Assembly: GCA_963813715.1 (NCBI GenBank)
Contig: CAWFAK010000016.1
Span: 384,001-448,000, forward strand
Direction: 5' to 3'
DNA length: 64,000 nucleotides
Source: an uncultured Planctomycetaceae bacterium
GTDB taxonomy: Bacteria; Planctomycetota; Planctomycetia; Planctomycetales; Planctomycetaceae
The translations under genes were made by a program, and so were the position numbers. Every line of letters begins with the position of its first letter. Within the stretch, counting starts at the first letter, position 1. The notes under the pieces are model-generated. The model was not told the origin of the DNA. It saw only the letters and a list, made by a program, of their open reading frames with translations, and searched no databases. Shown piece by piece: positions 7,221-13,098 of this stretch.

Positions 7221-7733
7221 GAGGATCGTCAAGGCTTCAATCGCTTCGGGGTCAGAAGGCCTCCAAAGCCTCAGGCCGCCCCCGCCCGATCAGCCCGCCT
7301 CGTGGACAAGAACAGACGCGGAAAAGTTTCGGAGTTGTTTCTATGGGCGTGGAAACTCGGGGTTCTTGGCATTCGGATTTGCCCGTAGGCTGGCGGTAGG
7401 GCTCGTCTCGCGACAGATCGCGGTGTGCGCGGCCGGCCCGAGGAGATGTCTTTAACCACCAGGCGCCAAGGACACCAAGCCAGATTGATGACTCCAAGAC
7501 TTGGAGCTCTTGCTGGCTTGGTGGTTCAGAATTCTGGTACTCAGCCAATCAACTTGGGACGGGACACGCGGGACACGTTGGGACCTGGGACAACTTCCAA
7601 CAGTGGGACACCTCCATGAAGGAGGCATTTGTCCCGCCTTAAAGCGTCGCAGGCGAATGATTTCAAGATAAAGCTGAAGCGGGACGGGACTGGTTTGCAA
7701 AGGGCGGGACGGGACACGAACGCGGCACGGGAG

Positions 7734-7967
7734 TTAGGCGGGCTCGAGATCGTCGACGTCTACCTCGGACGCTTCGATCACGCTTCCGTCGGCCGTCAGA
7801 ATCGCCGGTTCCAATTCGATCCAGAGGATTTGTTCATTCGGCGCATTGATGCTGACCTTCAGCTTCGGGGCTACGACGCCAACGGCCCCCCACAATTTCG
7901 CGTTAAAGCAACGTGGCGAAACCCGGACCCGGTCTCCGATGGAAAATCGGCGAAGCCGCTCGCTCAT
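7734..7967 (-). CDS. Small hypothetical protein (77 aa), possible SH3/KOW-like barrel
   Basis: MSERLRRFSIGDRVRVS...GAVGVV...EVDVDDLEPA pattern. Bracketed by GGGACGGGAC at 7706 and 7990. Confidence 0.55.
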   Translation of the reverse strand: MSERLRRFSIGDRVRVSPRCFNAKLWGAVGVVAPKLKVSINAPNEQILWIELEPAILTADGSVIEASEVDVDDLEPA

Positions 7968-8204
7968 ATGTTTTTCAGTAGTCACTACCGGGACGGGACT
8001 CGAACACGGCCATGGGACGAATTGTAGGGAGGGTAGCCAGGTCAACTTGTTCGGGCCACTAGGCGGGGGTTGAAGGCCCCTAGGTGTTTTCACCGGGGGT
8101 TGGGTCACCTTTTTTATCTCATAAAGGTGACCCACAGAATTGGTGACCCACCCCCCCCATGACGGGACGGGACGAGAGTGGGACATGGGACGGGAGAGGC
8201 CAAT

Positions 8205-8245
8205 CCCCCTCACCCCTGGCCCCTCTCCCGCAGGGGACGAGGGGG
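8205..8245 (+). repeat. REP-like CCCCTCACCCCTGGCCCCTCTCCCGC-N-GGGG element
   Basis: Near-identical copy at 11833-11872 and a related copy at 20168-20207. Confidence 0.75.
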
Positions 8246-8283
8246 AAGGTCCCTGGGAGAGCGGCTGTGTTTCTTTTCAAGAG

Positions 8284-9237
8284 TTAAGTGGTTGAGATTG
8301 CAGGGTTCCAGTGCGTGTTGTTTTTGACCATCGTGTTGAGGATCACGAGCAGCTTGCGCATGCAGGCGGTGATGAGGACCTTGGGTTTTTTGCCGAGGGC
8401 TTTCAAGCGATCCGAGAAGGCTCTGATGACTGGGTTGGAGTGTCGTGCGCTGAGCGTCGCCATGTACAGGCTACAGCGCACCGAACTTCGGCCGCCGCGG
8501 ATCGCGCGGCGTCCTCGGAACTCGCCGCTATCGCGATTGAAGGGGGCCAGGCCGACCAGTGCGGAGATTTTTCGTCGACTCAGCTTCCCCAACTCGGGGA
8601 CCTCGGCGATCAGGGTTGCACTCGTGCCCGGTCCAATCCCCGGCGCGCTTTGAACAATCTCGGCCTTCTGTTTCCACTCGTCGTCCGATTGGACCAGCGC
8701 GGCGATTCGCTTCTCGAAGCGTCGGATCTGCTTGGTGAGCGCGTTGACGCTCTCCTGAAGGCTCTTTTTAACAAACTTGCTGGCGACGTTTTCTTTGCGG
8801 TTCATTTCGGCGGTTCGCAGCTCGACGAGCTGCCGGCGGCGGACGACGAGGTTTTGCAGTTCGAGCTGTTTTTCCGGGATTTTGGTCTGGGTCCGCGGCA
8901 CGACGGCCTGCCCGAAGCGTGCCAGCACGGCCGCGTCGATCCGATCGGTCTTGGCGAGGATTCCACAGGCTTTGGCGAAGTCCCGGGCTTGCCGCGGATT
9001 GACGACCGCAACCTGATGGCCCGCGTCGATCAGTTCGGCGACGAGGGCCCGCTCGTAACCGCCGGTCGCTTCCACGACGATCAAACACTCTCCGGGAGGA
9101 GGAAGCTTCTCTCGGAGTTGCTGGCGGCCCTTGGAATCGTTTGGCGGCTTGAGCGACGTTCGCTCAGGCAGCACGTGCACGTCGAGGGTCCGTTTGGCGA
9201 TGTCGATACCGACGAAGGATTTGAAGGCGACGTCCAT
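8284..9237 (-). CDS. IS110-family DEDD recombinase/transposase (317 aa)
   Basis: [22 protein letters not shown] (DEDD); C-terminal PGIG...[10 protein letters not shown]...GGRSSVR. Confidence 0.97.
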
Positions 9238-11551: not shown

Positions 11552-11832
11552 GGGACGGGACACGTTGTTTCACCGAGAAAAGCCCGGAGAAATTGGCGAT
11601 CAGCCCCAGCTCGACGGCGTTTGGCCTGGACCCATCCGCAGCGGGCGGGAGAGAGAAGGATGGGACGGGACACGTTGGGACTGGACCGGCGACCGGTCAC
11701 AGAATGGCCGGTGGGTCGGGACACTTTGATTCAATAGGTAGCTGACCCACCGAAGTCGTTGACCCACCCCCTGCCATGACGGGACGGGACACTCCAGTCG
11801 AGCGGGACACGCGACGGGACACGCGGGACAAT

Positions 11833-11872
11833 CCCCCTCACCCCTGGCCCCTCTCCCGCAAGGGGCGAGGGG
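11833..11872 (+). repeat. REP-like element, second copy of the 8205 family
   Basis: CCCCCTCACCCCTGGCCCCTCTCCCGCAAGGGGCGAGGGG. Like the 8205 copy, it has GACCCACCCC...CATGACGGGACGGGAC a short way upstream. Confidence 0.75.
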
Positions 11873-12167
11873 AAAAGCCTCGGGGGACGGGACGGGACAC
11901 GAGCCGGGGAACGTCGCGGCTTCACTCGCTCCAGGATTAGAAGGCAGTGCGCGGCTTGCGTTTTGCGCAGGTGCGCTGTCTGCTCGACTCTTGGGGCCGG
12001 CAAACTTGCCGAAATCAGGATTACCTCATCGCATCGAGAACAATTCGCTCTCGGCCGACGACACTTCGGCGAGTTCCGACTCAACCGGGACGATTATCGG
12101 GGCGGCATTCTCTCGGACCGCGGCAGCCGCGGACGTATAATTGGGAAGGGCCCCGAAGGAATCGAAC

Positions 12168-12941
12168 ATGAAACGACCATTTTTCAAATTCGCCTTGGCG
12201 ACCCTGACATTCTGTTGGCTGGCGGGAATCGCAAATTCGACAGCAAGGGCACAAAGCGAAGGCCAGTTTGGCACATTGGTGCCCAATCCCCCAGGCGCAA
12301 CGCCTCCCTGGGCGGGGCAGGCAGGAGGCGTCGCAACCTTCGGAACTCCTGCTCCCTTGCCAAACGGGAGGTTTAGCTCCGCGTCAAACGGCAGGTTTGG
12401 AACGCCTGTCATCCCATTGGAAGATACGCAGGTCCAGGTCCAAAATGGAGTCCTGAGGGCACTGCTGGGAGAACCGCAACCTGGCGGCGTCTATGAGGCC
12501 TATGGAACTCCGAGTGCTTACGGACCCGACAACCGAAATCCCTACAACGGCAATCCCGACAACAGCAATCCCTACAGCGGCAATCCCGACAGCGGCAATC
12601 CCTACAGCGGCAATCCCTAGGGGCTCCCGGCGGCAATCCCGACAGCGGCAATCTCTACAGCGGCAATCTCTCCGGCAGCGGCAATCTCTTACGGCGGCAA
12701 TCGTCCTGCAACCGGCTATTACGGCGCAGGATTGGAGTCGAGCTCTGACAACTCCGGCGGCGGCTATCTGAGCAACGACGGCGGCTTCCGTGGTTATAGC
12801 CCTTACTACGGCAATAACGGCGGCTATGGACTGAACTACGGGGCCGTCGATTTGGGCTCCTCCGGCAACCACTCTGCGCCGGCTTACGACGGAGGCGGCT
12901 ACTACAGTAGCGGCATCTCCGGGAACGGCTACTCTCCGTAG
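12168..12941 (+). CDS. Secreted G/N/Y/S/P-rich low-complexity protein with GNP(Y/D)S pentapeptide repeats; broken by a stop and frameshifts at 12618-12720
   Basis: Signal peptide MKRPFFKFALATLTFCWLAGIANSTARA, NPYNGNPDNSNPYSGNPDSGNPYSGNP. Downstream frame GGGYLSNDGGFRGYSPYYGNNGGYG ends at 12941. Confidence 0.65.
12538..12690 (+). repeat. 15-nt coding tandem repeat (ATCCC(T/G)ACAGCGGCA)
   Basis: Five consecutive clear units from 12538, then degenerate units after 12630. Confidence 0.85.
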
Positions 12942-13098
12942 TCCAATAGCGCTGCAATCCGCGCATGCCGGGGAGATCTCGGCGCCGCGAGATCCGAGCG
13001 AGCCTTGGCCGTACCCTGCTTCTGGGACGGGACACATCGGGAGCGGCGCGCGAGGATCACTCGAGTGTCGCCCGGCATCGCCACGTGACTCCCGACGC

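Follow-up and report, generated by a model that had tools for sequence, protein, structure and literature searches.

Promoter-like leaders and origin-like modules shared by gene-less arrays and solo helicase genes in a Planctomycetaceae genome

The replication origin of Staphylococcus aureus pathogenicity islands (SaPIs) lies downstream of the rep gene, with a winged helix and opposed iterons around an AT-rich centre, as described in the available text of PMC9371898. In systems of repetitive extragenic palindromes (REPs), a vertically kept enzyme of phage or mobile-element derivation, the REP-associated tyrosine transposase (RAYT), is under purifying selection, and its many non-autonomous repeats, including REP doublets (REPINs) and bacterial interspersed mosaic elements (BIMEs), form mosaic arrays that vary between strains, according to the accessible portions of PMC3333891 and bioRxiv 10.1101/2021.07.10.451892. 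Neisserial intergenic mosaic elements (NIMEs), composed of dRS3 and repeat sequences (RS), appear in the available part of PMC1797815 as dispersed syntenic mosaics of variable content with a short recurring junction and opportunistic insertion of insertion sequences (ISs) and phages. Here we describe a field of GGGAC motifs in 64,000 nucleotides of an uncultured Planctomycetaceae bacterium (the window: positions 384,001 to 448,000 of contig CAWFAK010000016.1, assembly GCA_963813715.1). The field joins a promoter-like leader to stacked origin-like modules, and modules of this kind also end the genes of solo helicases elsewhere in the genome. It shares features with all three systems above.

An earlier note on this DNA reported about 50 GGGAC pentamers at positions 7556-13035, mostly in non-coding junctions. 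We counted 59 on the + strand and 5 on the − strand; of the former, 56 fall outside the four coding regions examined. The longer forms GGGACGGGAC (20 copies) and GGGACGGGACAC (15 copies) occur there exclusively on the + strand. The positions which that note gave for an open reading frame (ORF) of 77 amino acids (aa), for a block seen twice, for two units of ~225 bp and for a secreted-protein gene were all correct: the block lies at 8150 and 11762, with a REP at 8198 and 11826. The true start of the field is the leader at 7319-7400, upstream of the 7556 boundary, and this leader is retained at the orthologous site in three related genomes (G002, G006 and G009). Degenerate copies of one module, U, are found at 9592, 9818 and 11552. 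ARAGORN found nothing within the field.

Short-read contigs from other samples span window positions 7102-8237 and 11564-14198, and one such contig joins 8237 to 11550, lacking both IS elements and the tandem units. A further sequence (L125) is an allele with 94% identity that has the same modules, lacks any IS and differs in its number of units. Since the contigs from other samples cover parts of the field and the allele shares its modules, the structure is real and strain-variable; these data rule out the consensus artefact that had been considered as a refutation, and the anticipated strain-level variation is seen at orthologous sites, in contigs from other samples and in L125. At the window's own site a field is present in G002, G003, G006 and G009 with differing content, and there is no field in G007.

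The window's field is one among many in the analysed genome (G000), which has at least 72 single-strand fields (72 clusters of at least three 9-mers). Genome-wide, GGGACGGGAC occurs 363 times against 25 expected and GGGACGGGACAC 169 times against 0.9 expected under an order-3 Markov model. Clusters with at least two copies of GGGACGGGA are confined to a single strand in 77 of 81 cases. The recurring modules follow a common plan of two G-rich direct repeats, a T/A-rich core and inverted copies, and at least two module types are combined in 37 of 48 gene-less fields.

The modules are paired with the leader in a fixed polarity. Allowing one mismatch, the AAACTGATCTTGG leader has 71 matches, of which 57 are gene-less with a same-strand module downstream and none has a module upstream; two modules lie downstream of 20 of 2000 random positions. 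A regular expression for the window-type leader gave no matches, and a profile spanning both leader classes, seeded with the window leader, was used instead. Among its 95 matches at E<=0.01, five are at helicase genes, 83 are gene-less with same-strand modules downstream and seven are neither; again none has modules upstream. The alignment of the window leader with the leaders of helicase genes is also visible directly. The leader reads as a putative −35/extended −10 promoter. The leader pattern has 26 matches in G002 and none in G004, G005 and G008, and the two genomes G000 and G002 differ at 2 of 168 leader positions, a figure biased by the choice of G002 loci through the leader pattern itself. 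As judged from sequence, about 90 gene-less patches join a promoter-like leader to stacked origin-like modules.

Clustering of the ORFs near fields pointed to a gene with an AAA_25 domain. G000 has 11 loci of such solo helicases (what remains of 15 Pfam matches once DnaB, two under the cut-off and one split are subtracted). The solo proteins scanned combine AAA_25 with a MarR-like winged helix below the Pfam cut-off (E 2.5e-4) and have no primase domain; the loci share no recurrent neighbour family, be it an integrase, a packaging family or any other. The RecA-like core has Walker A, Walker B and the catalytic glutamate, and the glutamate is replaced in some subfamilies. A structure model (mean predicted local distance difference test score 70.9) matches RecA-like superfamily 4 (SF4) helicases: RSF1010 RepA is the best match by target template-modelling score (0.67), with RecA/Rad51 at similar E-values. 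A sequence search of PDB with the helicase gave no matches. The ratio of nonsynonymous to synonymous substitution rates is 0.07-0.14 in all six orthologous helicase pairs of G000 and G002. The solo helicases are under purifying selection.

Of 33 helicase loci in G000, G002 and G003, 29 have a module pattern 3' of the gene, and the other four have degenerate modules by eye. Each of the module types K/D, G, v, T, W and M/U is tied to one helicase subfamily, and the subfamilies group by module in a quick tree. The K/D module spans the stop codon of the gene at C9:146709 and recurs at ~27 gene-less loci with 77-93% identity, two of which carry an extra coding tail. A motif related to module W ends the helicase gene at C7:106772, and a module related to V ends another helicase gene (L044, by eye). 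In three relatives (L031, L032 and L025) a DnaB N-terminal domain takes the place of the primase, and genus g16, of another family, keeps a decayed copy of it; relatives of this kind could recruit the host DnaG.

Relatives of the solo helicases, 31-44% identical in the helicase core, are encoded by 26 viral contigs, and Prim-Pol together with PriCT was found in 8 of 14 viral relatives scanned. By eye, inverted GG(G)AC repeats are present at ~11 of 22 viral gene ends inspected, the others having different repeats or being cut off; in several (L099, L111, L112 and L115) a TATA-rich centre separates the inverted repeats, and the iterons of L111 and L115 match module T. Because this viral gene-end layout matches that of the SaPI origin, GGGAC is most simply an iteron, and the motif appears better read as part of phage-type origin modules than, as previously proposed, as a directional joining site. 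Very probably, the solo helicases and the modules descend from phage primase-helicases and their origins. The same viral match, together with the several specificities held under purifying selection, would also fit arrays selected by the host as origin decoys, which titrate phage initiators, with the primase-less helicases blocking phage origins or poisoning phage hexamers in an incompatibility-type defence. The modules have co-diverged within one resident helicase clade and do not look sampled from many phages, and we consider this role for the arrays rather improbable.

The motif is expanded (39-208 copies) in seven of the 12 genomes of the genus (g1, including G000) and occurs 0-2 times in the other five and in 29 genomes of other genera. 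Matches to the solo helicase clade better than 1e-100 are found in the same seven genomes; G001, G004, G005 and G008 have none and G011 has a single fragment at 1e-37, with completeness of 65-74% for G001, G004 and G011. No other enzyme family was found to track the motif in this way. The trans-acting enzyme that the earlier note envisaged has a candidate elsewhere in the genome, in the form of a helicase and not of an HUH/RAYT nuclease or recombinase. RAYT genes were rejected as a discriminator: Y1/RAYT genes occur in all 12 genomes, motif-poor ones included (individual Y1 subfamilies not separated).

A helicase profile matched 52 of 301 genomes of the class, and at least five copies are present only in G000 and in the four genomes of g16. 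There, the helicase genes end in a different module, an A-run followed by GTCCAGTCC, which has 108-308 overlapping matches in all four genomes versus three in G036. Gene-less, single-strand arrays led by a TTGACAAAGCGCAC-type promoter were seen at 4 of 10 sites in G026 and in 8 of 8 chosen arrays of G124 and G167. The g16 arrays also bear on an RNA-level explanation, in which the fields encode CsrB-like GGA sponge RNAs for many CsrA paralogs. The fields in G000 are promoter-led, GGA-rich and single-strand, 46 of 71 have a convergent gene downstream, and the genome has ~10 CsrA genes; in g16, however, the transcribed strand reads GTCC and not GGA, and the field has no Rfam match (the single match in the window, Acido-Lenti-1 at 3692-3747, is outside it). 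CsrA was rejected as a discriminator, with 9-17 genes in all 12 genomes of g1, motif-poor ones included. A sponge function is accordingly given very little credence. A hairpin resembling the Acido-Lenti-1 match recurs in the genome.

Replacement of the chromosomal origin by the fields is not supported, dnaA being present in all 12 genomes. Field strand and local GC skew agree or disagree in a ratio of 32:28, with 12 of the 72 fields set aside for near-zero skew, and on contig C7 the sign of the skew stays the same for most of the 1.1 Mb. Two DnaA-like genes are found in 10 of the 12 genomes.

Comparison of related genomes shows fields and helicase loci in exchange. A field copy of G002 is embedded in a REP, and the corresponding site in G000 is empty; the leader of this copy matches another field ending in the same REP family (a second candidate empty site, L091, was discarded as a comparison). 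Two helicase loci of G002 share 99.7% identity across 2.4 kb; they occupy pre-existing sites and have exchanged flanks, a pattern indicative of ectopic conversion or crossover. G003 has six copies with 91-96% identity and ragged ends beside REPs. As far as sequence comparison goes, the shared leader and modules, the viral relationship, loss of the primase, purifying selection and exchange between loci are directly supported.

We propose a mechanism in which the winged helix would bind GGGAC-type iterons, transcription from the leader would activate the site, for which the lambda origin is a precedent, and the helicase would melt the AT core. Local unwinding or abortive re-replication could then yield ends and single strands, to be repaired from other fields or at shared REPs. 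Such repair would copy whole fields, swap modules and keep strand polarity, and the process would favour units with origins for several helicase paralogs. That the helicases bind the gene-less modules in trans is probable on the sequence relationships. For the fuller proposal, that the fields are units of promoter plus origin, themselves non-autonomous and served in trans by domesticated initiator-helicases devoid of a primase, we see an even balance of chances, and for spread of the fields driven by the helicases slightly less than that.

Several observations weigh against this proposal. Among the near-identical copies compared, the unit has no fixed ends and no target duplication; copy boundaries are ragged and often in REPs, and RAYT or RecA alone could explain them. 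G000 and G002 have most helicase loci in common as orthologues, so these are not rapidly mobile, and several helicase copies in G000 are frameshifted, as is rpoB in this assembly. The modules are degenerate, module U has lost its palindrome (fold z +1.8), and iteron bases are only modestly more conserved (33 differences in 577 positions) than other field DNA (313 in 3660). The seven motif-rich genomes form one clade (in a tree without G001, which lacked the marker), so the co-occurrence of motif and helicase counts as a single event. Finally, the solo clades of g1 and g16 are separate on the best tree, and a common origin is not rejected (approximately unbiased test, p-AU 0.147).

These points lend themselves to the main rival explanation, an inert mosaic in which modules derived from helicase-gene ends now sit in neutral, NIME- or BIME-like fields spread by strand transfer through RAYT/REP and by RecA conversion, the helicases being kept for another job. 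Orthologous fields of G000 and G002 are largely collinear at ~90% identity, and the indels in eight of them, inspected by eye, are mainly ISs, REP inserts and small duplications, few of them motif-bounded. The new field copy landed in a REP, boundaries are REP-anchored, Y1 genes are ubiquitous in the genus, and iteron conservation is weak. Left unexplained are the paired, polarised leader and modules (83/95, none upstream), the stacking of modules from different paralogs and the repetition of the layout in g16 with another motif, and we judge a wholly inert mosaic unlikely. Returning to units served by helicases, their strongest form would make them intragenomic replicators, with primase-less initiators each having its own iteron specificity and ~100 promoter-activated multi-origin arrays fired locally; we offer this tentatively. 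Under it the arrays may also act as decoys against phages with the same iterons.

Some fields have degraded to pure minisatellites, with 19-bp units at G000 C17:898566-899285 (L015) and 39-bp units in G124 (L137 and L138). One field bridges the G000 contig ends C3:1-270 and C14:190400-190809 when set against G002 (L082), and several other G002 fields have an upstream flank without a counterpart at the equivalent locus of G000. Fields might therefore mark points where the genome is rearranged or the assembly breaks.

The features of the window's field are collected in Table 1.

Table 1. Features in and beside the motif field (window coordinates)
Position	Strand	Feature	Remarks
7319..7400	+	Leader: inverted repeat GTTTC..GAAAC (7337-7356), then putative sigma70-like promoter	Same family as solo helicase leaders
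7450..7530	+	Inverted-repeat insert, like a miniature inverted-repeat transposable element; presumably of the type seen beside GxxExxY genes	Sequence; similar insert at orthologous G009 site
7556..7717	+	Initial GGGACGGGAC runs; 125-bp stretch with no second copy in the genome	
7734..7967	−	77-aa micro-gene, passenger, ends not set by motif	No Pfam match
8096..8157	+	Origin-like module V: GGGTT-GGGTCAC, AT core, inverted GTGACCC x2	Fold z −3.1
8198..8257	+	REP-like hairpin	Frequent outside fields too
8260..9478	−	IS110 element, transposase 8284-9237	
9480..10028	+	Two tandem units of 226/222 bp (GTCCAAGGTCCAAA repeat segment and module U) and a third, partial unit	
10040..11551	−	IS4-like element, DDE_Tnp_1 transposase 10053-11408	11-bp duplication GGGACGGGACA at 10029-10039 and 11552-11562
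11552..11661	+	Module U (GGGACGGGACACGTTGTTTCACCGAGAAAA...)	Shared with the 3' ends of helicase genes C5:272627 and C6:37350; 93% identical in G002
11706..11775	+	Origin-like module W: GGGTC-GGGACAC, AT core, inverted GACCCACC x2	
11781..11900	+	Motif runs flanking the second REP-like hairpin (11826-11885)	
12168..12941	+	Gene for a protein with Gly/Pro/Asn repeats, predicted to be secreted; interruption at 12618-12620 in this assembly	
13024..13035	+	Terminal GGGACGGGACAC	Also present in G002 and G003

The 77-aa ORF and the secreted-protein gene bear directly on the idea that the motif delimits captured cargo. Three close copies of the ORF occur in G009 and G003, and their homology runs from the start codon to ~10 nt beyond the stop (7724-7967), reaching neither the motif at 7706 nor that at 7990. 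One of the copies has no field around it and two are within fields in the opposite orientation, so the ORF is found elsewhere without motif-defined boundaries. The copies begin with the TGAC(C/G)GC-ATG head of a separate micro-gene family. The 77-aa micro-gene is part of arrays (L128, L129 and L131) with the head TGACGGC-ATG and a GGCACGGGAG tail repeat, and the window copy has lost the head. The secreted-protein gene is at the orthologous site in G002 (243 aa) and G003 (204 aa) and is missing in G009 and G006, and G009 still keeps the gene's last ~40 nt before the terminal motif. In this assembly the gene is broken inside its own 15-bp repeat, and contigs from two other runs skip 12616-12695.

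Both IS elements had been placed at the motif. For the IS4-like element this holds: it lies at GGGACGGGACA in all six G000 copies (on C5, C8, C11 and C17, including the window), in both orientations, and five of the six have the 11-bp duplication. An element in G006 that is 73% identical likewise has a duplication beginning with GGGACG (one case). The C8 copy has opposed flanks, which suggests an inversion between copies or a mis-assembly. The IS110 element instead targets the core of the CCCTCACCCC..CCCTCTCCC REP and only abuts the motif in the window: its right flank is GGGAG in 9 of 9 copies, and 8 of 9 sit in the hairpin core. Eight of the nine are in fields and the last lies close beside one, although REPs of this type are also common outside fields. 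The window copy alone is reversed with respect to its field. Together with the REP and micro-gene inserts, both elements would be passengers of the field.

Site-specific capture of cassettes at GGGACGGGAC by a recombinase or HUH nuclease would account for a motif that separates modules, for the few indels and metagenomic joints that fall at it and for its targeting by the IS4-like element. The cargo ends lie off the motif, and no recombinase family recurs beside the fields, where RAYT or recombinase genes had been expected near motif clusters; Y1 genes do not discriminate. Cassette capture is largely refuted and appears very improbable. The earlier view that the field is neither a clustered regularly interspaced short palindromic repeat (CRISPR) array nor an integron stands, on its irregular spacing, repeated spacers, cargo not bounded by the motif and want of a recurring recombinase family.

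Directly upstream of the field, at window positions 5071-6950, are an Mrr-type restriction gene (Mrr_N and Mrr_cat) and a DUF4062-like gene, unmatched at the orthologous site in the relatives compared.

To our knowledge, wherever the driver of a dispersed bacterial repeat family has been identified, it is a transposase, a recombinase or a reverse transcriptase. In the present case the repeat stems from origin-like DNA, and an initiator-like helicase is the one enzyme family that was found to follow it. Should the helicases act on these arrays, they would offer a new way for repeats to spread and genomes to rearrange, and the origin of NIME-like mosaic arrays could be tested with one protein and one oligonucleotide; were the arrays intragenomic replicators, they would form a new class, spreading by origin firing and recombination and carrying neither a transposase nor a nuclease nor a reverse transcriptase. 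If the helicases do not act on them, a mosaic repeat family is still traced to phage origin-like DNA, and conserved orphan helicases remain to be explained. The IS4-like element with its 11-bp, GGGACG-containing target is a gain either way.

Like the Rep-ori of SaPIs and other phage-inducible chromosomal islands, as set out in the available text (PMC9371898), the helicase loci have origin-like DNA directly 3' of the helicase gene, a predicted C-terminal winged helix and opposed iterons (penta- or hexamers in the islands) around an AT-rich centre, degenerate in module U. They differ in that the island helicase, in the same text, is of AAA+ type, whereas that of the solo loci is a RecA-like AAA_25 protein. 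No cognate primase is fused to the solo proteins scanned or recurs as a neighbour, and 11 dispersed paralogs are accompanied by about 90 gene-less multi-origin arrays; instead of an island bounded by att sites with an integrase there are ragged ends with no duplication, and no integrase was seen beside the loci.

With RAYT–REPIN/BIME systems our system shares the vertically kept, phage-derived enzyme, the many non-autonomous repeats and their strain-variable mosaics, but the enzyme lacks an HUH nuclease domain. The repeats are direct, lie on a single strand behind a promoter and derive from the 3' end of the enzyme's own gene; in place of palindromic inverted or alternating REPs, 77 of 81 clusters are single-strand with REPs as separate inserts, and Y1 presence (12 of 12 genomes) does not follow the motif (7). 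As in NIMEs, the mosaics are syntenic, variable and attract ISs. The NIME junction is a 20-bp inverted repeat, dRS3, for which the accessible part of PMC1797815 describes no polarity, leader or cognate helicase; ours is the direct, polar GGGACGGGAC. Neither an integron's cassettes, bounded by a recombination site and accompanied by an integrase, nor the constant repeat and regular unique spacers of CRISPR are present. The SF4 fold is common to the solo helicases, RSF1010 RepA and the viral Prim-Pol/PriCT/AAA_25 proteins (L099, L101, L111, L112 and L115), the last with GGGAC/GGAC palindromes at their gene ends. The viral genes differ in being single-copy, with a primase domain and a perfect palindrome, as opposed to primase-less paralogs with degenerate, multiplied modules. 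A literature search that largely did not cover subscription journals found no description of such a system; it is new in composition, with a mechanism that we infer. In anatomy it is like the SaPI Rep-ori, in economy like RAYT–REPIN and in look like NIME arrays, and it departs from each of them in a defining trait.

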